From a virus (lineage: Duplodnaviria; Caudoviricetes): 62,787 nt of DNA. The stretch is from positions 1 through 62,787 of IMG/VR virus record IMGVR_UViG_3300028585_000025; one strand, given 5' to 3'. Of the stretch, positions 1,498 to 45,221 are shown piece by piece. The translations under genes were made by a program, and so were the position numbers. The number at the start of each line of letters is the position of its first letter. Position 1 is the stretch's first letter. The notes beneath the pieces were generated by a model that saw only the letters and a list, made by a program, of their open reading frames with translations, was not told the origin of the DNA and did not search any database.

Positions 1498-1527
1498 GAG
1501 GAGGGGTAACACCCTCCTCTTATGCCG
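1498..1527 (+). terminator. hairpin + TTATGCCG element
   Basis: gaggagggg-taac-accctcctc then ttatgccg. Confidence 0.75.
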
Positions 1528-1599
1528 TGTGTTTTCACGCTTTGTTGAAAGATACATAACCGCTCGTTTATATACACTCCGTAGAAAAGGAAGAGTAAC

Positions 1600-2562
1600 A
1601 TGTCTGATCAAACTGAAGCTAAGCAAGAATACCCAACTCAGGTGTTTGTAACCATCGCTGGTAACCACCCAATGGCAGAAGCGGCACTGGGGTCGGTGCT
1701 GTCCACGTTCTTCAATGACCTGGGCGTTGCCGGTCGTCGTCAGGATGCCAAAGTATTCGATGCTAAATATGCAGTCGATACTGTAAATGGACTGGCTGCT
1801 AATCAGCAAAATACCATCAACATCATGACTTCTCCATTGACCATGGAGTCAATGCGTGGCGAATACAAAGAATGGGATTGGCCAACCTGGGGCGATGCAT
1901 CTCAGCCGTGGACGGCTCTGGTAAATGACAGCCTGCGTAACATGTGGTCAATGTTCACCAGTGCACAGAAGCGTGCGATCTACGAAAGCTTCAATGAACT
2001 GAACATCCAGGTAGAAGGTGAAGATGAGCCGCTGACACTGGAAAGCGCGCTGCGTATTGTGCACGAGGAATCTGAAACGTATGTTCGTTTCAACCCTAAC
2101 CGGGATCGTACTGCATTCGGCAATGCGACTGTTGATGGTTCATTCCTTGATCAGGCCGAACTGCAAGCGATCCTGTTTGTGCTGAACAACGCCGTTCCTG
2201 GCACTGATGAAGGCGATGACGAACCACGCCTGCGTCAGCAGCAGACTGAAGTAGTTGGTGACGTGCAGCCAGCGCCGGAACTGGAACAGGGTGATAACCC
2301 AGCACAGAACGGCGCACACGCTGCCCCTGAACTGCCAGACGGTCGCGAAGTCCCTGATGTTGATGCGCCGGTTGCCGACCCAGCAAGTCCTGAGCACAAC
2401 CCAGAACACATCAACTTGACTGATGGTGTGCCAACTGTCAAATCAACTGACCCGGTACTGGCGCCTGTTTCAAACGCTGAACCGACCGATGCATTAACAC
2501 TCGCTGAGCCGCCAACATCTGGCTCTGTTGTTCAACCTTCACGTGACTCAGTAGAGGACTAA
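1600..2562 (+). CDS. hypothetical protein with acidic Pro-rich disordered C-terminus
   Basis: 320-aa ORF with RBS; D/E/P-rich last third. Confidence 0.75.
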   Translation: MSDQTEAKQEYPTQVFVTIAGNHPMAEAALGSVLSTFFNDLGVAGRRQDAKVFDAKYAVDTVNGLAANQQNTINIMTSPLTMESMRGEYKEWDWPTWGDASQPWTALVNDSLRNMWSMFTSAQKRAIYESFNELNIQVEGEDEPLTLESALRIVHEESETYVRFNPNRDRTAFGNATVDGSFLDQAELQAILFVLNNAVPGTDEGDDEPRLRQQQTEVVGDVQPAPELEQGDNPAQNGAHAAPELPDGREVPDVDAPVADPASPEHNPEHINLTDGVPTVKSTDPVLAPVSNAEPTDALTLAEPPTSGSVVQPSRDSVED

Positions 2563-2565
2563 ACC

Positions 2566-2964
2566 ATGCTACCCATCTCTGAACCTATCTCCATCTTTGA
2601 TGTACAGAACGTGCGTTTGACTGAAGAGCTTCAAGAGCACTTCCGTAAAGACCTCAACGAAGCAGATAAGATCCATTCGGTCTATGCGTTCAAAGATGGG
2701 TCGCGGTTTATCAAACCTTTTAATGGGTTCCTGGTCGTAACAGGCCCTGTCCTGCAGTATCAGTTGTATCGTGGTAATGAAGCGATTACTGCTGAATGGG
2801 TCGGGGCTTTTGCTTACGATGGTGAAGGCAATGCAATCATCCCTGATGAAATGCGAACGGTATTCAGTGATGTTGATCGTTCTCGTGTTGCACAGTGGAA
2901 AACACTTGCGCAGGCGTTACACTTCGCTGTGTTGCAGGATGTTAAACTGGGGTCGTTCAAATGA
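2566..2964 (+). CDS. hypothetical protein, paralog of 1084..1491
   Basis: GAGGA RBS; shared motif blocks. Confidence 0.7.
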   Translation: MLPISEPISIFDVQNVRLTEELQEHFRKDLNEADKIHSVYAFKDGSRFIKPFNGFLVVTGPVLQYQLYRGNEAITAEWVGAFAYDGEGNAIIPDEMRTVFSDVDRSRVAQWKTLAQALHFAVLQDVKLGSFK

Positions 2965-3695
2965 AAGATTCTTTGTATTCGGATTTACCAGAAGGGTGTT
3001 ATCCGCCTCTCCCGCCTGCTAAAGGTGGTATCTTCCTACGGGAAGGTAATAAAGAAGCCGTTCCACTGGTGTCGTGGAATCATGTTTTCGAAGCCACTCA
3101 TCAACTACCATCCAAGGCTATTCCTAACGAACGAGCATTTATTGCGTTAGCGCATGTGGTGTATGTTTGGAAAGACCGTATGTGGCACGAGGACAAAGAA
3201 GCCAAGCAGCACATTGATCGTTGTGTTCTGGCTGGTAATTTCAATGTCCTTGATATCAACTACATCGACGTACCAGACCCTTCCGAAGAAGCGGGCATTA
3301 CGTACAGTAGCAAAGATCGTCGTGAGTGGACTATCGGCAACTGGATTGCTCACTTAGGTGGTCGCATTAACAATGCTGGTTATTTGGAGTTCGGCAGTAT
3401 CTACGCGTTCAACATGATGATTACGCAGATGCGTCGTGCGGACTACAAGGGCAGTGAAGAGAAGATGCGGATCACTATCGACGGCGGCGATAACAACATG
3501 AAAGTGGCGCTGGCTTCCATGTTGCTTGGCTCTATGGTTGGAGCGGATTGCAATTGCAATACTGGTTCTAATCTTAATGAACTGGTTGATCAAGTCAATG
3601 TACGTAGCACTGATGCCGACGCACTTGACCGACTGGCAAGCAGCATCAAAGATACAGAAGTGATTGTAGACGTCCTACCTTTACTGCGGAGATAA
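2961..3695 (+). CDS. hypothetical protein
   Basis: 244-aa ORF with ATGA overlap. Confidence 0.7.
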   Translation: MKDSLYSDLPEGCYPPLPPAKGGIFLREGNKEAVPLVSWNHVFEATHQLPSKAIPNERAFIALAHVVYVWKDRMWHEDKEAKQHIDRCVLAGNFNVLDINYIDVPDPSEEAGITYSSKDRREWTIGNWIAHLGGRINNAGYLEFGSIYAFNMMITQMRRADYKGSEEKMRITIDGGDNNMKVALASMLLGSMVGADCNCNTGSNLNELVDQVNVRSTDADALDRLASSIKDTEVIVDVLPLLRR

Positions 3696-3697
3696 TC

Positions 3698-4717
3698 ATG
3701 AGCGATTATAAACCGTTAGCCCCAATCGCCAGTAACAAGGCAGGTAAAGACGCGTACACCGGTCAACCTACTATTGATTACATGGCGTTTGAAAAGAGTG
3801 GACTTGATGAGTTGCTGGCATTGTACCCAACGCATACTCTGTTCATTCGTAATCTGGATGCTGCACCGGATTACTATTCATTAATACCAATGGACGTGCT
3901 GGAAGCGAAAGAGTTTCCACTGGTATTATCTGTCATTGGCCCTGTTGATCGTGAGATGAAACATATCGTCTTAGAGGCAGCGGGGATTATTGAAATTCAA
4001 GCGCTTAGCGCACTTCTTAAGCAAAACGAGCAAGAAGCAAAACAGGGTAACTTTTTAATGACAACCGACAACACTAACGTGAATTACTTCGAACTGATTC
4101 GTGACTGGGGCAAGGCCCGTAACATCATCGGCGGTGGGTCTACGCCAATCGACCAGTTCATCAAAGGCATGACCGAAGCCTCTGAAGCATGGGGTAACAT
4201 CCTGGGTGGTCAAACTGATAAACTGAAAGATGACATCGGTGACACACTGGTTTGTCTGACACAGTCTTACGGCATCATCGATAGTACCAAGATCGAAGAA
4301 GCTGCTGCTGACCTGGGTCCATGGCTACAGAACGCCCGTGTCGAATATCAGAACCACGGCGAGTGGGCCGACAAACGTCTGGCGCTGTCTATCCTGCGTA
4401 AGCTTGGTAATATCTCTCTGGAGATTGAAGTGGCGCAGTTCGAACCTGATCACCACAGACCAAGCGAACTGCTGGATGATACCGCAGACCTGATCGCTGA
4501 TCTGGTTGTGCTGGCTGAATCCAAAGGCTGGACACTGCAGGAGTGCCTGGAAGAAGCCTACAACGACATCAAAGACCGTAAAGGCGTGATGTTTAATGGC
4601 GGGTTCGTTAAAGAAGCGAGCTTGACTGTTGATCGCGCGAAAGAGATGTTAGCATCCGGCGATGTCGGTGGTGTCGGTGCAGAATACCTGAACGGCTATA
4701 TCGCAGCTAATAGCTGA
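3698..4717 (+). CDS. MazG-like all-alpha NTP pyrophosphohydrolase with N-terminal extension
   Basis: IRDWGKARNI..QFIKGMTEASE..LKDDIGDTLV..LQECLEEAYNDIKDRKG.M.NG.FVKE is the phage MazG-like pattern. Confidence 0.75.
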   Translation: MSDYKPLAPIASNKAGKDAYTGQPTIDYMAFEKSGLDELLALYPTHTLFIRNLDAAPDYYSLIPMDVLEAKEFPLVLSVIGPVDREMKHIVLEAAGIIEIQALSALLKQNEQEAKQGNFLMTTDNTNVNYFELIRDWGKARNIIGGGSTPIDQFIKGMTEASEAWGNILGGQTDKLKDDIGDTLVCLTQSYGIIDSTKIEEAAADLGPWLQNARVEYQNHGEWADKRLALSILRKLGNISLEIEVAQFEPDHHRPSELLDDTADLIADLVVLAESKGWTLQECLEEAYNDIKDRKGVMFNGGFVKEASLTVDRAKEMLASGDVGGVGAEYLNGYIAANS

Positions 4718-4730: not shown

Positions 4731-4756
4731 GTCACCTACATTACCAAAGGGATAGT
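4731..4756 (+). promoter_or_regulatory. putative early (virion RNAP) promoter
   Basis: CCTACATTAC core (TACATTAC at 4737-4744); downstream G-G-G instead of GTG. Confidence 0.55.
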
Positions 4757-4779
4757 GAAAGCTATCCCTTCTATGCCCG
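4747..4779 (+). terminator. hairpin + CTATGCC element
   Basis: aagggatag-tgaaag-ctatccctt then ctatgccc. Confidence 0.6.
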
Positions 4780-6287: not shown

Positions 6288-6355
6288 TCAACCTGGGGAG
6301 GGGTATCCTTCCCCCATTTTACCTTATTCTAATTAATCATTTTGTGGAGTTCATC

Positions 6356-7534: not shown

Positions 7535-8323
7535 ATGACTCTGAAGAGCAACGAACAACTCAACGCAGAATCCCCTGAACTGCGCGATGTTATCGTGGTT
7601 GTCGATGGACTGAATGTCCTTGATCTCAACATTGCGCCTGGTGCACGCGCACCACGTTACAGTGTACAGTTATCCGGCGACATGGGCGTAACCCCCAACG
7701 GAATGCGGGCGGTATACGGACATGCAGCACAGGTACTGAATTACCTTATTGAAAAGGGTTTCTCAGCACATGCCAATGTATCGCGCGATGATCTGGATAA
7801 CGACATTGCTCACGCAACCTCGCTTATGAAGCAAGCGGTTGCGGCCCTGACCACCGCCGGCGAAGATATCTCGCTGCATTGTCACGCACTATCTATTTGG
7901 GTGACTACCTGTGATTTTAATCTGACTGAGATGCGTCTGCTCAGCGGCGAAGCAATGGATAAGGTAGAGTTCCTGCTGGAACAACCTGCCGAGCCATCTG
8001 ATGCGTTAACAGAGTTGATGACCCGTAAGCGTAAAAACCTGGTACGTGAAGACCTGGGTGAAACAACACCGGTAACGACATCGCTGGGCACCACCACGAC
8101 CATCATGATTGGTGATGAACTGCATGTGCGCCGTGAGTTTAACGATGAAGATGGTGAAGCGATCATTGTCTGGATTCCATCCGAACTGAACCAGGGTATC
8201 AACAACTGGAACGACGTGGATAAAGACAAGCTCAGTTTCCATGGCGGCGCATCAGAAGGTCATCCGACCTTTATCCTCAACCGTCATGCGGTCAAGGGTA
8301 ATGCTGATCAGTCGCCTGTTTAG
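7535..8323 (+). CDS. hypothetical protein
   Basis: AAGGA RBS; 262 aa. Confidence 0.7.
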   Translation: MTLKSNEQLNAESPELRDVIVVVDGLNVLDLNIAPGARAPRYSVQLSGDMGVTPNGMRAVYGHAAQVLNYLIEKGFSAHANVSRDDLDNDIAHATSLMKQAVAALTTAGEDISLHCHALSIWVTTCDFNLTEMRLLSGEAMDKVEFLLEQPAEPSDALTELMTRKRKNLVREDLGETTPVTTSLGTTTTIMIGDELHVRREFNDEDGEAIIVWIPSELNQGINNWNDVDKDKLSFHGGASEGHPTFILNRHAVKGNADQSPV

Positions 8324-8335: not shown

Positions 8336-8411
8336 AGACAGCGTAATCATATGCGATAAGGGGGTCTGGTGAAAGCCATATCCCTTTACGGATTATGCTG
8401 TCTTTTTTTTT
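8336..8411 (+). terminator. long compound hairpin ending TTATGCTG + T-tract
   Basis: agacagcgtaatc pairs with gattatgctgtct; inner aaggggg/tcccttt stem; followed by a T run. Confidence 0.7.
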
Positions 8412-8693: not shown

Positions 8694-8993
8694 ATGAACA
8701 TTTATCTTGTCAAGCTTAAGTCCGAGCCTCGTTACACCCCAGACTCGTTCATTGCTGCAGCGACATCAACAGAGCAAGTTCTATCAATACATCCTGCTTA
8801 TTTTAAAGGTCGACATACTCGTGTCTGTTTTGATGCAGAGATGGCGAAACTTTGGGAATGTGAATCGTCTGATCGCACCATGGACCATCAATGGACAACA
8901 GATAGAAACAATCTTGAGGTTATTTATTTAGGTCAGGCTGCGATTGAGTTTACCGAACCTACAATCGTTGAGATGTGGTACGGTTACTGTTGA
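8694..8993 (+). CDS. hypothetical protein
   Basis: GAGGA RBS; 99 aa. Confidence 0.7.
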   Translation: MNIYLVKLKSEPRYTPDSFIAAATSTEQVLSIHPAYFKGRHTRVCFDAEMAKLWECESSDRTMDHQWTTDRNNLEVIYLGQAAIEFTEPTIVEMWYGYC

Positions 8994-9000
8994 TCATACT

Positions 9001-9027
9001 GGGAGGCTTTGGCCTCCCTTTATGCCG
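9001..9027 (+). terminator. hairpin + TTTATGCCG element
   Basis: gggagg-ctttgg-cctccc then tttatgccg. Confidence 0.75.
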
Positions 9028-9068
9028 GTTATCTTATGACTTGTCTGTAACAGGTCTTGAGGTAATGT

Positions 9069-9719
9069 ATGTTAAAACGTCTGGCGTTTCTTTTATTCAG
9101 TAAGTTCTTTGATCCTAAAGGGGAGTACAAAATGTCCGAGCAGTCTAAAGATCAACCCGTCGTAGATGAGAACGCAACTCCAGAAGTGGAGCAGCTTACT
9201 TCTGCTTCATCTGATCCGATTGCAGAGGCACCTGCGGCAAGTGATAACTTCGTTGTTGCCCAAGACAATGGTGTGTCACGTCCTGTTGTAGACGACGTGG
9301 TAGATGCAGAACCTATCGTCGATGCACCTGTTCAGCCTGCAGCACCGGCTATCCCAGCGGTAGAAGAAGCACCCGCTCCTGTTGTGGTAGAACCTGTCGC
9401 TGAGGATGCACCTATTCCTACACCTGCAGTTGAACCGGCCCCAGCTCCAGTAGTAGTACCTTCGACCGACAGCGATAAGACTGAAGGCGAACCAGATACC
9501 TATCGCTTCGACCTGCTGGCCAGCGCACTGAAGAGTTTACTTCAGGAAGCCGGTCATGACCTGGACGAAGCTTTTGACGATGCTGTACCTTTGGCAAAAG
9601 AGATCGCTTCAAGTGATGAAGACTTTGGGCATAAGCTCAAAGGGATCTTAGTGGTAGTGGGTCGTGAATACGGCGAAGCTTTCCATAAGTTCTTCAATTA
9701 CGCGAAGAAGCATATATAA
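9069..9719 (+). CDS. Pro/Ala/Glu-rich hypothetical protein
   Basis: RBS-preceded ATGs at 9069 and 9132; low-complexity PA repeats then helical domain. Confidence 0.7.
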   Translation: MLKRLAFLLFSKFFDPKGEYKMSEQSKDQPVVDENATPEVEQLTSASSDPIAEAPAASDNFVVAQDNGVSRPVVDDVVDAEPIVDAPVQPAAPAIPAVEEAPAPVVVEPVAEDAPIPTPAVEPAPAPVVVPSTDSDKTEGEPDTYRFDLLASALKSLLQEAGHDLDEAFDDAVPLAKEIASSDEDFGHKLKGILVVVGREYGEAFHKFFNYAKKHI

Positions 9720-9728
9720 CGAAAACAG

Positions 9729-9759
9729 GGGGGTAGGAAATCCTACCCCTTCTATGCTG
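9729..9759 (+). terminator. hairpin + CTATGCTG element
   Basis: ggggtagga-aa-tcctacccc then ttctatgctg. Confidence 0.7.
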
Positions 9760-9802
9760 TTTAAATCTTATAGCTCCTTGTTATTCATTAATAGGCGGTC
9801 TT

Positions 9803-10559: not shown

Positions 10560-11273
10560 ATGTTAGAAATGCTGATGGGATCAAGGTCACTAGTACCAAA
10601 GGCCGACCAACCCGTATTGGGTTTTAACTTCGACCAGAACAAGAGTATCAGTGCGCCTAGTGCAACAGTATACTCAGGCGGTGCGATTGAAACCTTAACG
10701 AGCAGCAACGCTCTCGCCGGTTATACCAAAAGCTTACGTGTGGCGGGTGGAGTAGCTAACGTCACTCCGTTGTCTGCATTGTCAACTTTGGGCTTAGGTG
10801 ATTTCACTTTAGAGTGTTACGCCTGGATGACCACTATTCCTGCTGATTATTACCAACTCCTTTTTGCAACATTTGCTAACGGCAAATACTTGACGATCCG
10901 TGCTGGTAACGGTTCGTTCGGTCAACGCATGCAGGTTGGTATCGATCTGGGTAATGGTGCTAACTTCTGTAGTAACAAGACCGGGCCTTCTTTACGTAAC
11001 GCATGGCACCATTATGCGTTTGTCCGTAAGGCAGGTAAATGTCGGTTCTTTATTGACGGGCAATTACAGATGCTCGCTCAGGGAGTCAGTACAACTTACA
11101 GTCTCACTGAGTTTGATGGTAATTTTGATCTGTCTGGTAACTTGAACTCATTTGTGATTGGCAAGGCGAACTCTGGTTCGGGTGACATGTCCATACCGGA
11201 GTTTCTAATTTCTAAGTCAGCACGATATCAGACAAGTTTTACACCACCATCACCCCCGCTTTATAATCCATAA
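10560..11273 (+). CDS. LamG/concanavalin-A-like lectin domain virion (tail-associated) protein
   Basis: GDFTLEC..W, WHHYAFVR.AG..RFFIDG, EF.ISKSARY...FTPP. Confidence 0.75.
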   Translation: MLEMLMGSRSLVPKADQPVLGFNFDQNKSISAPSATVYSGGAIETLTSSNALAGYTKSLRVAGGVANVTPLSALSTLGLGDFTLECYAWMTTIPADYYQLLFATFANGKYLTIRAGNGSFGQRMQVGIDLGNGANFCSNKTGPSLRNAWHHYAFVRKAGKCRFFIDGQLQMLAQGVSTTYSLTEFDGNFDLSGNLNSFVIGKANSGSGDMSIPEFLISKSARYQTSFTPPSPPLYNP

Positions 11274-11277: not shown

Positions 11278-11307
11278 AAGGCCAGGGCTAGCCCTGGCTT
11301 TATGCCG
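11278..11307 (+). terminator. hairpin + TATGCCG element
   Basis: aaggccaggg-ctag-ccctggctt then tatgccg. Confidence 0.75.
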
Positions 11308-11316
11308 TGCTAAATC

Positions 11317-11342
11317 ATTTCATACCTACATTACCCATGTGT
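11317..11342 (+). promoter_or_regulatory. putative early promoter
   Basis: tttCATACCTACATTACccatGTG. Confidence 0.7.
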
Positions 11343-14091: not shown

Positions 14092-14640
14092 ATGATCGAC
14101 ATATCTGTTGAAAAGCGTTTAAGTGTTTTCAGTGGCGGTAGTTTCCAAGGCCTGTCTATCAGCGTTATGGAAGGACTGCGTTCGGTATTGACATCCAGTG
14201 TGCGTAAAGTGTTCATCTATGGTCTTCATCGCGATTACCATAAAGCGCTGTTCGCTCAACTGCGGGCAGAGTACGCACCTTACGGTGCGACGGTTACTGT
14301 CAATGCAGGTGTGTTAGGCGGCTCGCTAGATATCGCTTGGCCACAGTCTGATGTGGTGACGTGTGTTGTCATGAAGACTGACCCGGTTGAGCTGTCGATA
14401 CTGGAACACCTGGCACACGATACCCGTGTCTTCAATGTTACCGCCCGTCCGCTTAGTACCACGCAGTTGTTTGACCTCTATGACGTAGCGCGCCGGTTAG
14501 GGATTCACATCCGCATCTACACCACAGGTTACGTGCCAGAACCAGGTCCGTTGAGTTTACTCGAATCGTTTGAACTCATTCGTTACGTATCCAGTGCGAA
14601 GGTTGTAAAGCAAGTAACTGCCGACATAAATGCCCGTTAA
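14092..14640 (+). CDS. hypothetical protein
   Basis: AAGGTG RBS; 182 aa. Confidence 0.7.
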   Translation: MIDISVEKRLSVFSGGSFQGLSISVMEGLRSVLTSSVRKVFIYGLHRDYHKALFAQLRAEYAPYGATVTVNAGVLGGSLDIAWPQSDVVTCVVMKTDPVELSILEHLAHDTRVFNVTARPLSTTQLFDLYDVARRLGIHIRIYTTGYVPEPGPLSLLESFELIRYVSSAKVVKQVTADINAR

Positions 14641-14649: not shown

Positions 14650-14685
14650 AGCCTCCTGGGTAATTCCGGGAGGCTTTTTATACGG
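14650..14685 (+). terminator. hairpin + T-run/TATACGG variant
   Basis: agcctcctggg-taat-tccgggaggct then ttttatacgg. Confidence 0.7.
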
Positions 14686-14709
14686 TCTTCATTTTTTGTT
14701 GAGGCTAGC

Positions 14710-15065: not shown

Positions 15066-15093
15066 TTTTTCAAGTCTACATTACTATCGTGAT
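15066..15093 (+). promoter_or_regulatory. putative early promoter
   Basis: tttttCAAGTCTACATTACtatcGTGA. Confidence 0.7.
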
Positions 15094-18012: not shown

Positions 18013-18066
18013 TCAATTAACTCTGGGGGTTAACCACCCCCTTCTTGTATATAAAGGAAAAGTATC

Positions 18067-19873: not shown

Positions 19874-19939
19874 TTAACAGTCCGGCATGGGATGACCCGT
19901 GCCGTTTAATCCAATTAAATAAATGTAAGGTTACCTGCC

Positions 19940-21916: not shown

Positions 21917-21918
21917 GA

Positions 21919-21971
21919 CGGCATAGAGGAAGGCATCTGCCTTCCTCTAGCCTTTATGCCATCTTTTTTTT
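21919..21971. terminator. bidirectional hairpin flanked by CGGCATA / TATGCC
   Basis: cggcata-gaggaagg..ccttcctc-..tttatgcc + T run between convergent genes. Confidence 0.8.
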
Positions 21972-24199: not shown

Positions 24200-24227
24200 T
24201 TTCTCATGCCTACATTACATAGGTGAT
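24200..24227 (+). promoter_or_regulatory. putative early promoter
   Basis: ttctCATGCCTACATTACatagGTGA. Confidence 0.75.
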
Positions 24228-27311: not shown

Positions 27312-27340
27312 AGGAGGGGTTTCGGCCCCTCCTCTTTCTA
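27312..27340 (+). terminator. intrinsic terminator
   Basis: aggagggg-tttcgg-cccctcct then ctttct. Confidence 0.75.
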
Positions 27341-27899: not shown

Positions 27900-27909
27900 G
27901 GAGCACATT

Positions 27910-28392
27910 ATGTCTAACGGGGTAATGTGGATGATATTAGCAGGCTTTATAGCCATTGGTATGAAACTGGTCGGCACGGCAATGTCATCTCCGGCCTCGA
28001 CTGTTGCGGATCTTAAACGCTGGGCTTCTATGAAGACACCAGATTTCATTGACGCGGCTTTCACCGGGAATACCATGTTCAGCCTCACTGAACGTACGGC
28101 TAAACGCCATCTTAGCCAATTTGGTTCAAGTGGCATTGTGCAGATGTACACAGAAATATTTGCTGAACTCAGGCAATGTGTTGCAATGGATGGATGGATG
28201 GTATTAGGATCTATTGAAGATACCAACAACGGAGCTGTAAAGATCAACCTGACATTAATCAGAGAAGAAGTAACATTAGAGCGTGAATACATCGTACCTT
28301 ACTTGCACATCCTGCGAGTCACTGATACGTTCTCACCTGAAATGCTGCGTCGCTCTGTACGTGATGGACTGGTTATTAATGAAGCTGTCTGA
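27910..28392 (+). CDS. membrane-anchored hypothetical protein
   Basis: ATG 27910 after AAGGAG; N-terminal TM helix. Confidence 0.7.
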   Translation: MSNGVMWMILAGFIAIGMKLVGTAMSSPASTVADLKRWASMKTPDFIDAAFTGNTMFSLTERTAKRHLSQFGSSGIVQMYTEIFAELRQCVAMDGWMVLGSIEDTNNGAVKINLTLIREEVTLEREYIVPYLHILRVTDTFSPEMLRRSVRDGLVINEAV

Positions 28393-28411
28393 AAACTCCT
28401 CTACCTAATTC

Positions 28412-28441
28412 AGGCCAGGGTAATACCTGGCCTTTATGCCG
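28412..28441 (+). terminator. hairpin + TTTATGCCG element
   Basis: aggccagg-gtaata-cctggcct then ttatgccg. Confidence 0.75.
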
Positions 28442-28618
28442 GTTCAGGGGGTGGGTCCTAATATGCCACTACTAATTAATCAAAATGTAAAAACAGTAGA
28501 TTGGCTCGATTTTGGGCCAACTACCTAACCGACATAACTGCGCTGGGGATCCTAAGTGGTCCCCAGGCAATCAATCTAATTTAACTGACAACTTGTTTAA
28601 CACCAGGACAACGACCTC

Positions 28619-28789
28619 ATGCTGCGAACTCTCGTACGCTTTTTTAAATCAGCTGCAGTATTACCAGTCGATCAGACTGTAGCAAAACTCCAACAGGAGG
28701 TGAATGAACAACAAGCGCTTATCAATAGAATCCGTCGTCGCAATGAATCAAACATTCGCGGTGAACGTCTTCGTGATACGCGTGATTAA
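28619..28789 (+). CDS. 56-aa basic coiled-coil small protein
   Basis: MLRTLVRFFKSAAVLPVDQTVAKLQQEVNEQQALINRIRRRNESNIRGERLRDTRD; AGGA upstream. Confidence 0.5.
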   Translation: MLRTLVRFFKSAAVLPVDQTVAKLQQEVNEQQALINRIRRRNESNIRGERLRDTRD

Positions 28790-28802
28790 CCGTAGTTTAT
28801 TG

Positions 28803-28838
28803 AATGCAGAAAATCTCACACCTATATGACCTAGGTGA
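28803..28838 (+). promoter_or_regulatory. putative early promoter (TATATGAC variant)
   Basis: aATGCAGA-n6-CACACCTATATGACctagGTGA. Confidence 0.7.
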
Positions 28839-28901
28839 TATGCAGTAGTAAGCACATCAAGATTCAATCCAATTTAATTATTCGTCTAGTGAGGTATCAT
28901 C

Positions 28902-30734: not shown

Positions 30735-30741
30735 TTTTGTG

Positions 30742-30789
30742 AGGGCTAGGGAATCCTAGCCCCACTCTTTCCTCTTTCTTTTTTTTTTT
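30742..30789 (+). terminator. intrinsic terminator
   Basis: gggctagg-gaat-cctagccc then pyrimidine/T tract. Confidence 0.7.
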
Positions 30790-30803: not shown

Positions 30804-31274
30804 ATGCACGTTATTACTATCGGTGCAGTAGCGATACTGCTATTTATTACCTTCCTGATTTTATCGGAATGGCGGTTACGTGCTAGTAAGAATCTTATCT
30901 TCCGTGAGATCACGAAGATCGCTTACTCAGTCCTGCGTTACACAGAAGTAAAAGAAGTCACGCCAGAGATCTATCTCATCTGTGCAGAACTGCAATCACG
31001 TATGATCAAGATGGGTAATTTCTCAATCACCCCACGTGATAAAGAGATCGCCATGTCCATCGCTAAATACATTGCAGTGTTTGGTAATCAACGCGTACGT
31101 GACCCAGTGGTGTTACTAACCGTTATTGCTAGACGCTTAAATGAGTTTGATGGCATCTCGGCTAAATCACTGACTACCACCAATGGACGCATGGAACTCG
31201 TTATAGGACATGACGATGCTACCGACTATGATCGTATCATCTTTCGCTTCAACTCTACCCAGACGTTGTTTTAG
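30804..31274 (+). CDS. membrane-anchored hypothetical protein
   Basis: GAGGT RBS; N-terminal TM helix. Confidence 0.7.
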   Translation: MHVITIGAVAILLFITFLILSEWRLRASKNLIFREITKIAYSVLRYTEVKEVTPEIYLICAELQSRMIKMGNFSITPRDKEIAMSIAKYIAVFGNQRVRDPVVLLTVIARRLNEFDGISAKSLTTTNGRMELVIGHDDATDYDRIIFRFNSTQTLF

Positions 31275-31275
31275 G

Positions 31276-31312
31276 CGGCATAAAGGGCAGGGTTTCCCCC
31301 GCCCTCTTTTAT
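31276..31312. terminator. bidirectional terminator (minus strand hairpin+TTTATGCCG; plus strand hairpin+T run)
   Basis: cggcataaa-gggcaggg-tttc-cccgccc-tctttt. Confidence 0.7.
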
Positions 31313-31953
31313 TTACTGGTAAGACGTGTTTCGTAGTCTGCAATGATTGCGCGTAACTGACTGACTTCTGCCGTTAGTGCCAATACCTGGGCATGCTCAG
31401 TAGTACGACGCTTAATTGCATTTAACCGATTGATCTCATTCAGGCGATATTGTTCAGCTGTCACCGCATTAGTAGAAGGTGCGACGGCAATGGCAATTGA
31501 CGGTTCTACACCGATGAGGTCACTGATGTCTGCTTTAATAACATCCTGAACCTGGGTTAACTGCGAAACAATAGAAGAAGGCAACGCGCCAAGCGACATT
31601 GACATCACGATGTACTCGTATTGAATTGCTGAGTCATCAGGGAATTGGGTGATGTACGTGCTTGGGATATATACCGGTGGAACGCCTGTGCCTTGGAGTG
31701 TGATGATATTAGCGTTAGCCAATACATCGTTATCCATGTTCGTTTGCGCAAGTCCAACCGGTGTATATACGCGTCCCAGGATATCCACATTTAATGACTG
31801 CAGATCTTGGAACGTGCGGATTGCTTCTACTTCGTAAATGATACCCGGATCAATCTTGGTGGTATCGCCCGATCCCGCTGTGGTTTGATAAGGCGCATTA
31901 ACCTTAAACAAACCTTTGGTATTAATCGGGGGCGTTAAAGAGGTAACCGCCAT
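31309..31953 (-). CDS. putative virion structural protein
   Basis: 214 aa; minus-strand pair upstream of RNase H as recalled for phiKZ-like phages. Confidence 0.6.
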   Translation of the reverse strand: MAVTSLTPPINTKGLFKVNAPYQTTAGSGDTTKIDPGIIYEVEAIRTFQDLQSLNVDILGRVYTPVGLAQTNMDNDVLANANIITLQGTGVPPVYIPSTYITQFPDDSAIQYEYIVMSMSLGALPSSIVSQLTQVQDVIKADISDLIGVEPSIAIAVAPSTNAVTAEQYRLNEINRLNAIKRRTTEHAQVLALTAEVSQLRAIIADYETRLTSK

Positions 31954-33843: not shown

Positions 33844-35364
33844 ATGGATAAGTTACCTACTACTTCGCTGCCAAAGGTATCGATGGTTCTTTACACCGAT
33901 GGCGGTTGTCGTCAGAAGGTCGGCGGATGGGGTATTCATGGATACACCTGGTTGCTGGAAGATGATGACAAAAAGAAAAAGAAGAAGCCGGCACGTGACG
34001 TCCCGTCAACGACTGGCTATATCGTAAAGGATGACCCTAAGCTTGAAAACCGTGAAGTGGTTCGTCCATATCAGGTAATTGAAGGCTTCGGTGGCATTCT
34101 GCCCGATACGACCAATAACGTTGCTGAACTCCGGGCAACGATTAATGGCATTGACTTAGCACTACAGCACAACACTGATAAGATCCTTGTCATCTCGGAC
34201 TCCGAATATGTTGGTAAGAATATCCGGGGTTCGCTCCATCGTTGGCAAGCCAATGGCTGGAAGAAGGCTGATGGCGGGGAAGTCGCAAACCGTGGTCTGT
34301 GGGAAACCATGATCACAAAGCTCGACGAATTAAAGTATCGCGGCATCAAGTTCGATATCGAATGGCTCAAAGGCCACGCCGGTCATCGTGGTAACCAGTT
34401 CGCTGATTACATGGCAACACGTGGTGTGTTCAAAGGCCGCGCTGGGGATGATAAAGATTACATTCAAACCCAGGATGCTGCAGAGTACGAAAAGTATAAA
34501 ACAGAACGTCCTCGTTTTGTCACCCACTCGCGCTGGTACTTCACGCTTCAAGACGAGAAGCTGATGAACAAGAACGAACAGGGGATGTACGAGTATTGCT
34601 TTGGCCATCCAAGCAAAGGCGACTCTGATCAAGTTTATCTTGGGAAGGCTTTAGCCGATACCGCTTTCAGCGTCGTTTGGTTGAAAGCTCCTGAAGAATG
34701 TTTAGATTTAGTCTACACCCGCACCAAGGAAATCTCGACTAACGTTTACGGTAACGCATTCATTGGTCGACTGGATAACATTTACAATCCATTCATTCAC
34801 AAAGAGATCATGGACTATGGTGCGTCATTGCTGCAGCGTGCAAACAGCTACAACAACGATATCACTAACTGTACCGATGCTCTTGTGGTGCGTGAATGTA
34901 ATCCGCCTGGGATCTCTTATCGTGCATTAACTAACCTTGCGTATATGTCGCGGACGCTGGGTGGTTTTGTCACGGGTGACTTGCCACCGGATGTATCGGT
35001 GATTGACATTACGGACAGTGTCTATCAGACAGTTGCCGGTAAGAAATCTGAGAAGTTGGCGTTGGTGGATGGCATTACTCAAATCGCCAAGGCCATCAAG
35101 GTCAGTGTACCGTGTAAGGAACTCCTCGGTAAAGATGTATCCGTGGATGTTACCTGCACGCTCGGTTTAAGCATGCCTAACCGTAATACATTAAACGGTA
35201 TTACTGAGCTTAACCCGAAGGTATACCTGTACCTGATCAAGGAGTCCGACATTGCATTCCGCTACGGATCGATCGTGGTATGTGATGAAGGGTACTGCAT
35301 CATGGCTAATGTCTACGCTGACTTACGTACGTTATCAAAGAAGGATCTTGAGCGTTGTAGTTAG
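33844..35364 (+). CDS. rnhA: ribonuclease H (phiKZ-type, with C-terminal extension)
   Basis: LYTDGGC, TNNVAEL, ISDSEY, W..NGWKK, WLKGHAGHRGNQFAD. Confidence 0.9.
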   Translation: MDKLPTTSLPKVSMVLYTDGGCRQKVGGWGIHGYTWLLEDDDKKKKKKPARDVPSTTGYIVKDDPKLENREVVRPYQVIEGFGGILPDTTNNVAELRATINGIDLALQHNTDKILVISDSEYVGKNIRGSLHRWQANGWKKADGGEVANRGLWETMITKLDELKYRGIKFDIEWLKGHAGHRGNQFADYMATRGVFKGRAGDDKDYIQTQDAAEYEKYKTERPRFVTHSRWYFTLQDEKLMNKNEQGMYEYCFGHPSKGDSDQVYLGKALADTAFSVVWLKAPEECLDLVYTRTKEISTNVYGNAFIGRLDNIYNPFIHKEIMDYGASLLQRANSYNNDITNCTDALVVRECNPPGISYRALTNLAYMSRTLGGFVTGDLPPDVSVIDITDSVYQTVAGKKSEKLALVDGITQIAKAIKVSVPCKELLGKDVSVDVTCTLGLSMPNRNTLNGITELNPKVYLYLIKESDIAFRYGSIVVCDEGYCIMANVYADLRTLSKKDLERCS

Positions 35365-35376: not shown

Positions 35377-35733
35377 GTGACAACATTATTTGCCGGTGCA
35401 CCAACAAAGCTCCCTATGATGGACCTGTCCGCACTCATCGACCCTGACCGGGATGTTGAGTCGCGGATGAAACGGAAACTGTTATTGACTTTCGTTTGTC
35501 ATCGCCGTAAACCTCGCGCCAGTGCCGATGAACTTAATCGGCTACACCATCTTGATGAGGATTCAGGTGATGTCGAGCAGTGTCTTGATTACATTGCTCG
35601 GATGGGTTCAGAGTTTAATGAAGCTTATGAAGGTGTGGACTTTAACGATATCATGGATGTCATGAACCATACGCCACGGTGGCTACGTTACGGTTCGACC
35701 ATTGAGATGTGGTCAGATCTAAAGCAGTTGTAG
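35377..35733 (+). CDS. hypothetical protein
   Basis: GTG start after AGGAG. Confidence 0.65.
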   Translation: MTTLFAGAPTKLPMMDLSALIDPDRDVESRMKRKLLLTFVCHRRKPRASADELNRLHHLDEDSGDVEQCLDYIARMGSEFNEAYEGVDFNDIMDVMNHTPRWLRYGSTIEMWSDLKQL

Positions 35734-35781
35734 GGCATAAGAGGAGGGCACTAGCCCTCCTCTATTTATGCTCATTTTTTT
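35733..35781. terminator. bidirectional hairpin flanked by GGCATAA / TTATGC
   Basis: ggcataa-gaggaggg-cactag-ccctcctc-tatttatgctc + T run, between convergent genes. Confidence 0.8.
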
Positions 35782-36577
35782 ATTTTACTTCCACGGCGAG
35801 TTTCTTAGCCGAGTTCGTAAGCGCAGTACCGGTAGCGATGAATAGTGTATTACATACGCTATACAGATCAATGGCACGTGCCGTATCCAGCATGACTTTC
35901 GCCAGCAGATCAACATCGGGCTTGGTGATTTTAATATCACCTGACTCAATTTGAGCATAGATAACGTCCGTGAGTTCAGCAACACGTTTAACCGCGGCAT
36001 TCAGATCACGCACGTTCCCGCGTTTAATAGATTCAACTAATTTGTTGAAGTCATCGTACGCGGTGATGAATTCAATCATGTTAGCAAAACGAGAAGCGAA
36101 TGAAACTGTAGTAACATCTTTACCGCCTAAGCTTTTGCCAAGAACGGATTCAACTTTACCCAGTGTCATTTTATCGATCGTGGGCGCGTAGGCGACGCTT
36201 GCCTTACCGGCAGCCACCTGACCCAGCCAGCTTTGCAGCTTATTCAGATGATCAGTCTCTAACAGCACGCAGAAATTACGTACTGTCTGCAGGTTACCAA
36301 TCCACTCTTTATAAGAGATGTTCAGACGGGCAGGCTGATACACTTGCAGATCCATGAAGTCAGTGTAGTTATGTGTCTTCACAGCTTTTGCAACCGGTGA
36401 GAAATCCGCATACACCATCGCAGTGGATGTGTCGTAGATCTTATCACCGAAGAACTTCTTTACACCATCAAAGAAGTTACGAACGGGGGCAATTAGGTCA
36501 AGGCCCTCTAAGCCTGTACCAGTCGACTCACGCAGTCCACGGTAATCGGCTTCTAGGTTATCAATGTTGTACGACAT
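35780..36577 (-). CDS. putative internal head protein with protease-cleaved propeptide
   Basis: N-terminal ..TGTGLE-GL matches the phiKZ-type S/A/G-x-E site; divergent from uvsX. Confidence 0.6.
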   Translation of the reverse strand: MSYNIDNLEADYRGLRESTGTGLEGLDLIAPVRNFFDGVKKFFGDKIYDTSTAMVYADFSPVAKAVKTHNYTDFMDLQVYQPARLNISYKEWIGNLQTVRNFCVLLETDHLNKLQSWLGQVAAGKASVAYAPTIDKMTLGKVESVLGKSLGGKDVTTVSFASRFANMIEFITAYDDFNKLVESIKRGNVRDLNAAVKRVAELTDVIYAQIESGDIKITKPDVDLLAKVMLDTARAIDLYSVCNTLFIATGTALTNSAKKLAVEVK

Positions 36578-36658: not shown

Positions 36659-38044
36659 ATGTTGTCATTCGGTGAATTTGTTGAGAAGTCACGCCCTATT
36701 CGTCCTTTCCTGAATATAGGCGCTGGCTTTGATATTCCGACCGGTAGCTACCGTCTTGGTAAGCACGGGGAATCTATTCTTAATGGTGGTCTTGCTCCCT
36801 TTATTGCAATCGTAGGTAAAGGCAACACCTTTAAGACAGCGATCGGCTGTTTTATGCTGACGCGGGCATTAGAGCGTTACAGCAACGCTAACGCCTTACA
36901 CTACGATACCGAGTGTACTTTCAGTCCTGAACGTTTAGTCAGCCTGACCAACCGCTTAGGGCCCGAAGCGGCACTGCAATGGTTAGAGTCTGAACGTATC
37001 TATCTGACCGATGACTCCGTGGTGAAAGGCAACCAATGGTTTAAGAAAACGGTGCAGGAATACTCAGAAGCCAAATCAAAAGGCAAGATGGGTACATTGC
37101 CGTTCATTGATAAAGACGGTAACCTGATTCGTCATCCGTTCCCAACAGTGAACTTTGGCGACTCCATGTCTGAGATGAAATTCAATGACCTGGAAAAGAA
37201 CTATGCCAAGATGGAAATTGGTCAGGGTGAGATGCAGACCGAAGCCATGCGTGTGTCAAACGCCAAACGCATGTTAATCGAGAAGACTCAGGGCTACGCT
37301 AACGCCGGTGGCCTGTATGTACTGATGACCGCACACCTGGGCAAAGAGCTCAACCTGGACGGTAAACCACAAGAGAAGAAAACCACCTTCATGAAACAAG
37401 GTGATAAGATCTCTAAGGTGCCTTCACAAATTCTGTCTCTACCGAACAACGTCTGGGAAATCTCTACTGGTACACAGCTCATTGATAAGAACACCAAAGA
37501 GTGGATGTACCCGAAAGCCGGTCGTGACGATGTGGATACTAATGGTAACCCAGATCTGATCACCCTGGTTGCGAAGAACCTGCGTGGTAAAAACGGGCCT
37601 TCTGGCGTACCGTGGGAATTTGTCATGTCGCAGTCTGAAGGTTTACTGCCACACCTGACAGAGTTCCATTACATCAAGAACGCCGGTCGCTATGGTCTGG
37701 GTGGTAATGACCGTAATTACTATGTTGAGTTGTGTCCTGATGTGAAACTGCAGCGTACGCAGGTCCGTGGCAAGATCGATGAAACACCAGAACTGCAACG
37801 CGCTCTGGAGATCACCATGGAAATGTGTCAGATGCGTTTCCTCTGGCATACCCGCGATCCAAAGTACAACATGACTCCAGAAGAACTTCGTGTTGGTCTG
37901 GAGAAGAAAGGGTACAAATGGGATCAGTTACTTAACACCCGTGGGTTCTGGACTTATGAAGAAGATAATCATCCATTACCATTCTTAAGCACAATGGACT
38001 TACTCCGCATGTATCATGACGAGTACCGCCCATACTGGCTGTAA
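36659..38044 (+). CDS. uvsX: UvsX/RecA-like recombinase
   Basis: RPFLNIGAGFDIPTG, GKGNTFKT Walker A, YDTE, RGKNGPSG. Confidence 0.85.
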   Translation: MLSFGEFVEKSRPIRPFLNIGAGFDIPTGSYRLGKHGESILNGGLAPFIAIVGKGNTFKTAIGCFMLTRALERYSNANALHYDTECTFSPERLVSLTNRLGPEAALQWLESERIYLTDDSVVKGNQWFKKTVQEYSEAKSKGKMGTLPFIDKDGNLIRHPFPTVNFGDSMSEMKFNDLEKNYAKMEIGQGEMQTEAMRVSNAKRMLIEKTQGYANAGGLYVLMTAHLGKELNLDGKPQEKKTTFMKQGDKISKVPSQILSLPNNVWEISTGTQLIDKNTKEWMYPKAGRDDVDTNGNPDLITLVAKNLRGKNGPSGVPWEFVMSQSEGLLPHLTEFHYIKNAGRYGLGGNDRNYYVELCPDVKLQRTQVRGKIDETPELQRALEITMEMCQMRFLWHTRDPKYNMTPEELRVGLEKKGYKWDQLLNTRGFWTYEEDNHPLPFLSTMDLLRMYHDEYRPYWL

Positions 38045-38058: not shown

Positions 38059-38088
38059 AGGGGGAGGAAACTCCTCCTCTTTATACCG
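38059..38088 (+). terminator. hairpin + TTTATACCG variant
   Basis: agggggag-gaaa-ctcctcct then ctttataccg. Confidence 0.7.
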
Positions 38089-38122
38089 TCAGTAGAGGGA
38101 ACTAAGCGAATAGGAAAGCAGT

Positions 38123-42969: not shown

Positions 42970-42997
42970 AAGTTACACCTACATTACATAGGTGATA
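42970..42997 (+). promoter_or_regulatory. putative early promoter
   Basis: ttACACCTACATTACatagGTGA. Confidence 0.7.
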
Positions 42998-43552: not shown

Positions 43553-43562
43553 GGAGATTTAG

Positions 43563-44021
43563 GTGGCAGATAAAAAGAAACCTAAAGACCAACTAACCGA
43601 TATGTTGACGGATCCTTTAAAACGGTCACGTCAAGCTAACGATCCGTTAGTTAGGCTTTGGCGACAGTTTATGACTCGTGAGCTTGTTACTCCATCGAAG
43701 TGGAGTGCCTTGATTGCGGATCACATAAACCGTCTACGTTCTTTTAAAACGATGGATGTGCAATCGATAGGTACCGAGAGGGGGAACCTAAAGAAAGCAT
43801 TCATTGAAAAGTCAACGATGTCGTTTAGTGCACTGAGACGCGGGTTACGGTTCCTGGGCTTTGTAAAAGTTACCATAATTGTAATCGCTGAAAGACCGTC
43901 AGGTGAGAAAGTCGAAGAGCAAGTGACAATCGAGCTTGTCCCAAAACGTATGTTTGGGGATCGTACACCGACTCAGCCAACACCGAATGGCACCCCAGGA
44001 GAAACTCCTCCTGAACAATAA
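43563..44021 (+). CDS. hypothetical protein
   Basis: GTG start after AAGGAG; RGNL.K..MSF...RGLRFL motif. Confidence 0.7.
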   Translation: MADKKKPKDQLTDMLTDPLKRSRQANDPLVRLWRQFMTRELVTPSKWSALIADHINRLRSFKTMDVQSIGTERGNLKKAFIEKSTMSFSALRRGLRFLGFVKVTIIVIAERPSGEKVEEQVTIELVPKRMFGDRTPTQPTPNGTPGETPPEQ

Positions 44022-44036
44022 ATGGATACTATAGAA

Positions 44037-44079
44037 GATGGGACTTCGGTCCCATCCCTATTACTGTTCTTTTTTTTTT
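44037..44079 (+). terminator. intrinsic terminator
   Basis: gatgggac-ttcg-gtcccatc then T tract. Confidence 0.75.
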
Positions 44080-44093
44080 GTTAAGGATCACTC

Positions 44094-45164
44094 ATGGCCG
44101 GCGTAGATATTGGCAGCTCCATCCAGAACTCGATTAAGTCAGCGGGTGCAATCACTACCAATGCGGTGAACAAAGCATCGTCTACGTTTGTCGGTGGGAT
44201 TAAAGAAAACCTGACGTTGATCGATGACAAAACAAAGTCAGCGGTTCAAACATTAAACTCTTATAAAGACTCGGCGATTGGTTCAGTCGATGGGTTCATC
44301 AAGAAGGTCTCTAACGGCGCTCTAAGCATCTCAGAGCTCTCGAGTATCATCGATGTACGTAATGGCATCAGTATCGACTACCAACGCTTATATCGCCGCC
44401 TAGGCGATGCTGCGGGATTCCCCATGGATTCAATCATCGGGATGACCAACGACTTAAAGATGGAAGTCGCCAACGTACTCGATGCGTATTCAAATAAGAA
44501 CTATACCTACCTGTTAAATGCAGCGGGTATTAAGATCAATGTCAACGATGCGTCGTATAAAGCGATGCAGTTGATCTCAGGGGTCATCAGTAAGTATTCT
44601 GAAAGTGATTCCAAGTTTAACTATATCGTTGATGAAGCGGCCCAGATCGCATTCTTAAATGTAATGGTGCGTAACGCAGTCCAAGTCGGTCTTTATAGCG
44701 GAATCGATACATTACTCGATCAATACACGATCAAGTCAGAAGGGCTTAAGAACTTGGCCAACTGTGCATCGATCTCTATTCGAACAGGCGATATCTGGAC
44801 CACGAAGTATATTGTTGATAAAGTCGGGATCGGTACTGTCGTCTCATTGAACACCGACTTCCTGACTGACATGTTGCGCTTCTTTAAGTTTAAGTCAGAT
44901 GCAACACCTGCGGCCTATCCAGATTATCTGAATACGTTAATCTATTCATTGAATCTGGCTGATGTTGATTGGGCGTTCAGGAACTTCGGTACAGTACGTG
45001 CACTTAACCTGAAACCGTTTACCATGGCATCAACTGATGCGATCACGTTGTTCTCTAACACCGAGACGTATCGTCAGCATGTAATGATCGCCAAGTCTTA
45101 TCCATCAAAAGACAAGATGGATCTGTTAACCCAGATGTATCCGCAATTAGCTATCGTACAATAA
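44094..45164 (+). CDS. putative virion structural protein
   Basis: 356 aa; convergent with tail genes as in SPN3US-like gene order (recalled). Confidence 0.55.
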   Translation: MAGVDIGSSIQNSIKSAGAITTNAVNKASSTFVGGIKENLTLIDDKTKSAVQTLNSYKDSAIGSVDGFIKKVSNGALSISELSSIIDVRNGISIDYQRLYRRLGDAAGFPMDSIIGMTNDLKMEVANVLDAYSNKNYTYLLNAAGIKINVNDASYKAMQLISGVISKYSESDSKFNYIVDEAAQIAFLNVMVRNAVQVGLYSGIDTLLDQYTIKSEGLKNLANCASISIRTGDIWTTKYIVDKVGIGTVVSLNTDFLTDMLRFFKFKSDATPAAYPDYLNTLIYSLNLADVDWAFRNFGTVRALNLKPFTMASTDAITLFSNTETYRQHVMIAKSYPSKDKMDLLTQMYPQLAIVQ

Positions 45165-45166
45165 AT

Positions 45167-45221
45167 CGACATAGCAGAGGAAGGAGCATTGCGCTCCTTC
45201 CTCTATGCCATCTTTTTTTTT
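45167..45221. terminator. bidirectional hairpin flanked by CGACATA / CTATGCC
   Basis: cgacatagc-agaggaaggagc..gctccttcctct-atgcc + T run. Confidence 0.8.

Follow-up and report, generated by a model that had tools for sequence, protein, structure and literature searches.

Hairpin-and-box elements at gene ends of an uncultured phiKZ-like jumbo phage: probable phiKZ-type transcription terminators

The virus record IMGVR_UViG_3300028585_000025, referred to here in its full length as the window, is a metagenomic contig of 62,787 bases with 47% GC and constitutes a piece of a jumbo phage genome. The subject of this report is a recurrent element at its gene ends, a GC-rich hairpin followed by a short box resembling TTATGYYGT, which is very probably a transcription terminator of the type described in phage phiKZ. 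The window aligns collinearly with Erwinia jumbo phages of the genus Agricanvirus (Simmy50, RAY, and Ea35-70), with which it shares patchy DNA identity of ~76%, and appears from its sequence to belong to an uncultured phiKZ-like jumbo phage carrying its own transcription machinery. Two genes encode beta-type subunits of a phage multisubunit RNA polymerase (RNAP), presumably belonging to the enzymes that read the terminator signal:

54041-55657, plus strand: RNAP beta-type subunit gene (phrog_2986, E = 1.9e-237)
55669-60252, plus strand: RNAP beta-type subunit gene (phrog_3148, E = 0)

Further genes encode a UvsX-like recombinase, an RNase H-like ribonuclease, a helicase, virion proteins, and a tail-fibre/lysin-like protein of 2230 amino acids. 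The UvsX homologue is common to the window, phiKZ, 201phi2-1, RSL2, PCH45, SPN3US-like phages, and others. A search of sequencing runs with the contig gave one match, a DNA run from a leaf-litter metagenome that may be its source, and listed no RNA run.

Hairpins were located with RNAfold in 34-nucleotide sliding windows on both strands, genes are open reading frames (ORFs) chosen by the analyst, and the hairpin and box at every catalogued site were re-read base by base. A preliminary description of the window had reported GC-rich hairpins followed within a few nucleotides by TATG(C/T)(C/T)-type boxes or TATAC variants, and at all 14 coordinates that it listed a GC-rich hairpin was found with TATGCC, TATGCT, TATGTC, or TATAC 0-5 nucleotides behind it. 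The hairpins at these loci are stable GC-rich stem-loops with folding free energies (dG) from -13.5 to -24.2 kcal/mol. The candidate terminators are as follows:

1498-1528, plus strand: 3′ of ORF 1084-1491; hairpin 1498-1519 (dG -16.0), box TTATGCCGT at 1520-1528
4747-4779, plus strand: 3′ of ORF 3698-4717; hairpin 4747-4770, box CTATGCCCG at 4771-4779
8357-8410, plus strand: 3′ of ORF 7535-8323; hairpin 8357-8388, box TTATGCTGT at 8393-8401 (offset +5), then a T9 run
9001-9028, plus strand: 3′ of ORF 8694-8993; hairpin core 9001-9018, box TTATGCCGG at 9020-9028
9728-9760, plus strand: 3′ of ORF 9069-9719; hairpin 9728-9751, box CTATGCTGT at 9752-9760
11280-11308, plus strand: 3′ of ORF 10560-11273; hairpin 11280-11299, box TTATGCCGT at 11300-11308
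14650-14686, plus strand: 3′ of ORF 14092-14640; hairpin 14650-14675, variant box TTATACGGT at 14678-14686
21908-21962, bidirectional: between convergent ORFs 21623-21916 (plus) and 21970-24126 (minus); hairpin 21924-21949, plus-strand box TTATGCCAT at 21954-21962
21926-21918 and 21916-21908, minus strand: tandem boxes CTATGCCGT and then TTATGTCGT after the bidirectional hairpin 21924-21949
28412-28442, plus strand: 3′ of ORF 27889-28392; hairpin 28412-28433, box TTATGCCGG at 28434-28442
28529-28566, minus strand: orphan hairpin 28566-28543 with box TTATGTCGG at 28537-28529
31275-31317: between convergent ORFs 30804-31274 (plus) and 31309-31953 (minus); hairpin 31284-31305, minus-strand box TTATGCCGC at 31283-31275
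35732-35774, bidirectional: between convergent ORFs 35377-35733 (plus) and 35780-36577 (minus); hairpin 35740-35763, plus-strand box TTATGCTCA at 35766-35774, minus-strand box TTATGCCCT at 35740-35732
38059-38089, plus strand: 3′ of the UvsX-like gene 36659-38044; hairpin 38059-38081, variant box TTATACCGT at 38081-38089
45166-45211, bidirectional: between convergent ORFs 44094-45164 (plus) and 45256-47247 (minus); hairpin 45176-45204
45203-45211, plus strand, and 45174-45166, minus strand: boxes of hairpin 45176-45204, CTATGCCAT followed by a T9 run on the plus side and CTATGTCGA on the minus side

The pattern used for testing, TTATKYYGT, was taken from the published phiKZ motif and not derived from the window, and a hairpin with a dG of -12 kcal/mol or below was scored as boxed when at least 8 of the 9 positions matched within -5 to +8 nucleotides of its 3′ end. 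By this rule 15 of 176 hairpins in the window are boxed, against 1.96 expected from the genome-wide box frequency (Poisson P = 3e-9), so that the motif is enriched 3′ of hairpins across the window. Two of the 15, 26025-26058 (minus strand) and 60455-60484 (plus strand), fall within coding sequence and look fortuitous. A stricter cut-off of -14 kcal/mol gave 14 box matches beside 75 hairpins, with 0.84 expected. Because box-like words are about four times as frequent in intergenic as in coding DNA, the test was repeated within intergenic DNA only, where 11 matches fell on 651 hairpin-adjacent strand-positions and 12 on the 8013 others (odds ratio 11.5, Fisher P = 2e-7). The heptamer TATGCCG occurs nine times on the plus strand, with five copies away from hairpins, which is about the chance number.

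The box also follows the direction of transcription. When 4-, 5-, and 6-mers were all counted without bias over the 22 nucleotides around the 3′ edge of junction hairpins, TATGCC was the top 6-mer at gene junctions, where it follows 10 of 33 sense hairpin sides and none of 25 antisense sides (P = 0.003). Matches of at least 8 of 9 were found at co-directional loci on the sense strand in seven cases and on the antisense strand in two, and at each of the four hairpins at convergent junctions both strands match at 7 or more of the 9 positions, the boxes standing in mirror image. These counts agree with the earlier view that the box tracks transcript orientation. The further claim that the box at 31276 is confined to the minus strand was roughly right, although the plus side of hairpin 31284-31305 does carry the weaker TTATTTACT (7 of 9). 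Runs of five T within 10 nucleotides accompany just 2 of the 176 strong hairpins, which accords with the remark that a U-tract is often absent.

Pairing of the box with an upstream CATAA, which would make it a mere extension of the stem, was considered and set aside as a general explanation, since it holds at the convergent sites and, elsewhere, only partly at 8995 and 11275. Inspection of the flanks revealed no contiguous box complement upstream at 1498, 4747, 8357, 9728, 14650, 28412, or 38059; at 1498, pairing of TTAT with an ATAA upstream would require a 2-nucleotide bulge. Since at most co-directional junctions the flank upstream has no complementarity to the box, stem symmetry does not account for the box, which represents a sequence signal in its own right, as had been proposed.

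The same arrangement recurs in relatives of the window. Simmy50 has 16 boxed hairpins where 2.11 were expected, Proteus phage 10 has seven (1.05 expected), and each of ten IMG/VR relatives with UvsX identities of 74-95% exceeds expectation (1-9 boxed hairpins versus 0.19-2.03), the shortest loci having just one or two. Pooled over the window and 14 loci, 131 boxed hairpins were counted where 18.5 were expected. Controls showed no such excess: a 50-kb stretch of Escherichia coli K-12 had 6 boxed hairpins among 261 (3.18 expected) and three copies of TATKYYG (3.17 expected), and none of 15 hairpins in phage T4 was boxed. At the convergent junction orthologous to 35740-35763, the flanking GGCATA (left) and TATGC (right) are kept in 12 of 12 loci across six different stem sequences, so the box is conserved despite turnover of the stem. 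The candidate terminator after UvsX likewise keeps its non-G variant through the orthologues, as TATACCG or TATTACG, and one relative (L010) has a hairpin after UvsX without a box. Orthologues were also located for 8357-8410, in Simmy50 at L002 10101-10130, and for 28412-28442, in relatives L002, L004, and L006.

For the internal anatomy of the box, 17 sites, themselves picked as box-bearing, were aligned on TAT alone, with the first T of TAT as position 0. Position -1 is T at 12 sites and C at five, and the bases after TAT are G at 15 (A at two), C at 15, C at 13 (a pyrimidine at 16), G at 12, and T at 10, with T at +9 in 14. The window consensus can thus be written Y-TTAT-G-C-C-G-T beside the published TTATKYYGT of phiKZ. 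TATG is present at 15 of the 17 sites and TATA at the remaining two, and the series after UvsX reads TATAC or TATTAC. Three U fall within the first four bases and the remainder is G/C-rich.

The motif is already published and has been described in two related phages, phiKZ and 201phi2-1; it is the window clade that is new for it, and the literature searched contained no paper tying Agricanvirus phages to the motif. In phiKZ, 133 termination regions were mapped by ONT-cappable-seq (Putzeys et al. 2024, microLife, PMC10914365), and a hairpin with TTATKYYGT was reported at 61 mapped terminators; six bidirectional terminators lie between convergent genes (PMC10914365). The main terminator motif of 201phi2-1, motif A (n = 59), is said by its authors to be one that "strongly resembles" that of phiKZ (PMC11512511). 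The scan used here recovers the motif in two 50-kb stretches of phiKZ, with 20 boxed hairpins against 1.65 expected (L001) and 16 against 1.34 (L003).

The likeness to the phiKZ motif extends to the GC-rich stem-loop directly before TTATKYYGT, the position 3′ of genes, and the bidirectional arrangement between convergent genes (PMC10914365), and that to motif A includes its TATAC variant, seen in the window at 14678 and 38081, after a hairpin with a TTTATGYYGT-like sequence (PMC11512511). There are also differences. In most stems of the window clade purines predominate in the 5′ arm and C in the 3′ arm, unlike the phiKZ arms CCYCCCC (5′) and GGGRRGG (3′), whose polarity is shared only by 14650-14675. 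Among 38 window-clade and 36 phiKZ sites, all of them chosen by means of the pattern, C prevails in the 3′ arm of the former (27 of 38 C at -7) and G in that of the latter (27 of 36 G at -8), and box positions 5-6 are G in 34 and C in 30 of the 38 against G/T and T/C in phiKZ, making the tail of the window clade GC-richer and less U-like. Stems of 201phi2-1 end in GGC, which places G at -10/-11 of the mapped end, whereas window stems lack such a G. Activity of the 201phi2-1 elements was measured in vivo with host RNAP; those of the window are known from sequence.

Where the RNA ends within the motif was read from published coordinates. Eight transcription termination sites of 201phi2-1 have been printed with their positions, and tested elements were active in uninfected Pseudomonas chlororaphis, that is, with host RNAP (PMC11512511). 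Placed on NC_010821, all eight lie on the plus strand just past a hairpin and downstream of a plus-strand gene, and all eight show a hairpin with a TTTATGYYGT-like sequence, one of them the TATAC variant. The RNA 3′ end falls on the second Y of TTATKY[Y]GT, ~8 nucleotides past the GC stem, at seven sites and one base earlier at the eighth; the mapped 201phi2-1 ends sit 3 nucleotides downstream of the G of TATG. In phiKZ, the 3′ end at 270485 on the minus strand, the sole one printed in the main text, occupies the same motif position 7 nucleotides past the stem; as a check of the coordinate frame, the 5′ end of the same RNA lies 1 nucleotide from the G of a TATG. With mapped ends on the second Y, the RNA stops short of the conserved G and T of the box. 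This position within the motif is a modest addition of the present analysis and is not stated in the portions of the published accounts that were consulted. Since it is fixed in this way in 201phi2-1, the RNA 3′ end at the window site 1498-1528 is predicted near 1526.

These observations suggest how the element would work. The phage's own multisubunit RNAPs would transcribe through the stem, the nascent RNA would fold into the hairpin, and UUAU, the first half of the box, would provide a short, weak rU:dA-rich RNA:DNA hybrid in place of the long bacterial U-tract. The polymerase would then stop and release the RNA 7-8 nucleotides past the stem, once the second pyrimidine of KYY has been added and before the conserved G is incorporated. 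The final GT of the box would then remain outside the released RNA and exert its effect as DNA, at the active site or in front of it. A single hairpin boxed on each side would terminate transcription in both directions between convergent genes. We consider the Y|G stop point about as likely as not. This Y(-1)/G(+1) point resembles the most conserved portion of the elemental pause signal; the consensus of that signal, g-11 G-10 t-3 g-2 Y-1 G+1, acts on multisubunit RNAPs from bacteria to mammals (PMC11077087, PMC6336406). We infer that RNA ends form at the window sites, that they arise by termination and not by trimming, and that Y|G has a pause-type role. Because the same grammar follows both small genes of unknown function and virion genes, as with 31275-31305, which follows a virion structural gene, and 45166-45204 (each on the minus strand), both phage polymerases are suggested to read the signal.

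With a bacterial intrinsic terminator the element shares the GC-rich hairpin, an RNA end ~7-8 nucleotides past the stem (by homology), and function with a bacterial RNAP in the case of the 201phi2-1 elements; it differs in having, instead of a U-tract of ~5-8 U, a fixed UUAU and then a conserved G-Y-Y-G-T. The class II termination signal of T7 RNA polymerase is likewise a short conserved sequence and not a U-tract, but it has no hairpin, serves a single-subunit enzyme, and differs in sequence. Four letters of the phiKZ late promoter, TATG, recur in the box (PMC4666361, PMC12809450), which is set apart by its upstream hairpin, its variable G position (K in phiKZ, A at two window sites), its location at gene ends, and RNA ends 3 nucleotides past the G.

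That last resemblance underlies a more specific proposal, in which the box is read as DNA. The beta-lobe pocket of phiKZ GP123 binds single-stranded non-template TATG at late promoters (PMC4666361, PMC12809450), and a pocket of this type might capture the box while the bubble passes the hairpin and hold the enzyme for three more bases to the Y|G stall, after which the hairpin would release the RNA. If this were true, a promoter-recognition pocket would have been reused as a terminator or pause sensor, akin to the reuse of the -10 element in sigma-dependent pausing, and pocket capture would explain why the lineage keeps TATGYYG after hairpins although a U-tract would do. The elements are, however, active with host RNAP, the G position varies, and both phage polymerases presumably use the motif; the proposal is unlikely to be correct.

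Among explanations that dispense with simple termination, one couples it to re-initiation, with the TATG of the box serving as a late-promoter start (G as +1) for the non-virion RNAP and restarting the downstream gene. phiKZ late promoters do require TATG with G as +1 (PMC4666361), and the frequency of TATG in the window alignment, the 66 late-type start sites reported in phiKZ, and the next start codon ~25-45 nucleotides downstream of the box at co-directional junctions, a plausible leader length, all favour such restarting. Yet initiation at the boxes flanking all four convergent hairpins would yield antisense RNA only, and a late promoter needs each base of TATG (PMC4666361), whereas two of the 17 window sites and the UvsX orthologous series have TATAC or TATTAC and K stands at this position in the phiKZ motif. 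Moreover, no hairpin lies upstream of the model late promoter P119L, the CCGT after the TATG of the box is unlike the bases following TATG in P119L, and the mapped 201phi2-1 ends lie past the would-be start G. Re-initiation, which the preliminary description had entertained, accordingly appears quite improbable. Much the same small likelihood attaches to the view that transcription ends elsewhere and that the hairpin and box mark where a nuclease cuts or where the 3′ end is protected. Ends 7-8 nucleotides past a stem are typical of exonuclease stalling too, the long T-run 3-4 nucleotides past the box at 8402, 21964, and 45212 could be the true release site, and the 3′ ends seen by ONT-cappable-seq do not separate termination from processing. 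Against processing, T-runs are absent at most box sites (see the five-T count above), and the conserved G and T beyond the mapped end cannot belong to the mature RNA, so that trimming gives no reason for their conservation. The eight 201phi2-1 elements also block expression of a downstream reporter in uninfected cells, six of them as well as or better than lambda T0 (PMC11512511).

Those reporter results bear equally on the idea that the box binds a phage termination or anti-termination factor or another sequence-specific protein. In its favour, nine conserved bases exceed the needs of a weak hybrid, the motif is restricted to this phage lineage as judged from the E. coli and T4 controls, and the authors of the 201phi2-1 study proposed unidentified antitermination proteins (PMC11512511). 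Because the eight 201phi2-1 elements terminate in uninfected P. chlororaphis, without phage proteins (PMC11512511), the signal needs none, and this analysis identified no candidate factor; such a role is very unlikely. An artefact of chance or composition, produced by AT-rich intergenic DNA and stop codons beside hairpins, is scarcely credible: the intergenic box rate is indeed fourfold that of coding DNA, and the reverse complement of TTAT contains a TAA stop, which explains some antisense near-matches (1495, 11274, 30734), but chance is contradicted by the intergenic-only odds ratio, the strand specificity of TATGCC, the retention of the box across orthologues with differing stems, and the lack of enrichment in the controls.

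Termination of the phiKZ type thus remains by far the best account of the elements, and several points weigh against it or its details. Termination at the window sites would follow from homology. Constant 3′ ends 7-8 nucleotides past a hairpin can also arise from exonuclease trimming, with stalling of RNase II or PNPase. The box is not obligatory: from 34 junction rows, 11 were dropped as not GC-rich or not at a gene end, and the 23 loci judged terminator-like by eye divide into 13 with a sense TAT[G/A]YY box, nine without (6295, 13500, 18025, 19883, 25423, 27312, 30739, 44031, and 47275), and one, 28539, with a box on the minus strand only, which makes the box a majority feature and not a universal one. 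Spacing between stem and box varies, being 0-2 nucleotides after the GC core at most sites and +4/+5 at 8393, 21954, and 35766. The G and T counts of the 38-site set come from sites selected with the pattern, and alignment on TAT alone gives the lower G 12 of 17 and T 10 of 17. Agreement with the elemental pause is partial: mapped ends share the pyrimidine at -1 and the G at +1 (PMC11077087, PMC6336406), while TG stands one base out of register, at -4/-3 and not -3/-2, and -10/-11 is C-rich in the window clade, where the G-10 present in 201phi2-1 stems is absent. The position of the RNA end rests on nine published coordinates, and 5′ ends from ONT-cappable-seq are off by up to 2 nucleotides according to the authors (PMC11512511). 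The preliminary description had assigned the signal to the phage RNAP; its sequence-specific termination part is supported by homology with phiKZ and 201phi2-1 and by the RNAP genes of the window, but this support does not extend to specificity for the phage RNAP, the 201phi2-1 elements being active with the host enzyme.

For uncultured phiKZ-like phages, phiKZ-type termination would supply an annotation rule: transcript ends and their strand could be read off from a hairpin with TTATGYYGT behind it, and operons thereby delimited without RNA data. At 47% GC the tail reads TTATGCCGT, which indicates a real sequence signal and not a degenerate U-tract, a distinction less easily drawn in AT-rich phiKZ. 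The location of published 3′ ends within the motif suggests that its last conserved bases act ahead of the RNA end, and the question of termination thereby becomes testable at box positions 5-9.

Four distant phiKZ-like phages, RSL2, BONAISHI, PCH45, and SEGD1, were sampled over 23-25 kb each and gave a mixed picture, so that one identical motif across the whole family was rejected. Matches of at least 8 of 9 were near expectation in RSL2 (3 of 150 hairpins, 0.95 expected) and BONAISHI (1 of 38, 0.36 expected) and raised in PCH45 (6 of 70, 0.66 expected) and SEGD1 (9 of 109, 1.41 expected). Variant tails were found, namely TTATG/TATGT in RSL2 and BONAISHI, TTGTGCTGT in Serratia phage PCH45 (L017), and the T-rich TTATTTTTT in SEGD1 (L015, SPN3US-like). 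The PCH45 and SEGD1 variants suggest that the tail may have diverged together with the polymerases.

Among the gene-end hairpins lacking a box, those at 6295-6314, 18025-18041, 19883-19904, 27312-27333, 30739-30765, and 47275-47297 are GC-rich, and a TTTTAC-like sequence follows two, 6295 and 47275 (minus strand). The box-less hairpins may be a second class of terminator or weaker sites. Long T-runs (T7-T11) lie 1-4 nucleotides past the box at 8402-8410, 21964-21971, 35776-35782, and 45212-45220, and others are found at 30776-30786 and 44071-44080; the Simmy50 orthologues show the same long T-runs past the box. At convergent sites the T-run is present on the plus side only and corresponds to an A-run that directly follows the minus-strand gene's stop codon. 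Such runs might provide a further site of release, act as spacers, or belong to promoters.

The intergenic region 28393-28901 (509 nucleotides) holds the plus-strand candidate terminator 28412-28442 facing the minus-strand hairpin with TTATGTCGG, and this facing pair is conserved in relative L004. Upstream of the orphan element 28529-28566 there is no evident minus-strand gene, only ORFs of 27-39 amino acids, and neither Rfam at the gathering threshold nor ARAGORN found an RNA gene in the window, hence no known one beside it. The facing pair may mark a small antisense or non-coding transcription unit.

A ribonuclease/RNase H-like gene (33844-35364, plus strand, phrog_3265) encodes 506 amino acids; an RNase H-clamp protein supporting replication and transcription in nucleus-forming phages is described in a 2026 preprint (PMC13648698). 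The protein of 2230 amino acids is encoded at 47307-53999 on the minus strand, matches tail-fibre family phrog_3201, and has lysozyme/endolysin-like and chitinase-like stretches at about residues 1830-2090.

A second short motif, distinct from the box, recurs upstream of genes, and one copy adjoins a catalogued hairpin:

4736-4744, plus strand: promoter-like motif CTACATTAC, just upstream of the candidate-terminator hairpin 4747-4770

Exact copies of CTACATTAC occur five times on the plus strand, at 4736-4744, 11326-11334, 15076-15084, 24210-24218, and 42979-42987, with ~0.5 expected for a 9-mer, and all five are intergenic and upstream of plus-strand genes. With one mismatch allowed, the motif is not enriched in the window (17 copies, 12.7 expected). 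It resembles the phiKZ middle-promoter element AAanTTACc (PMC4666361) and is a candidate promoter motif.

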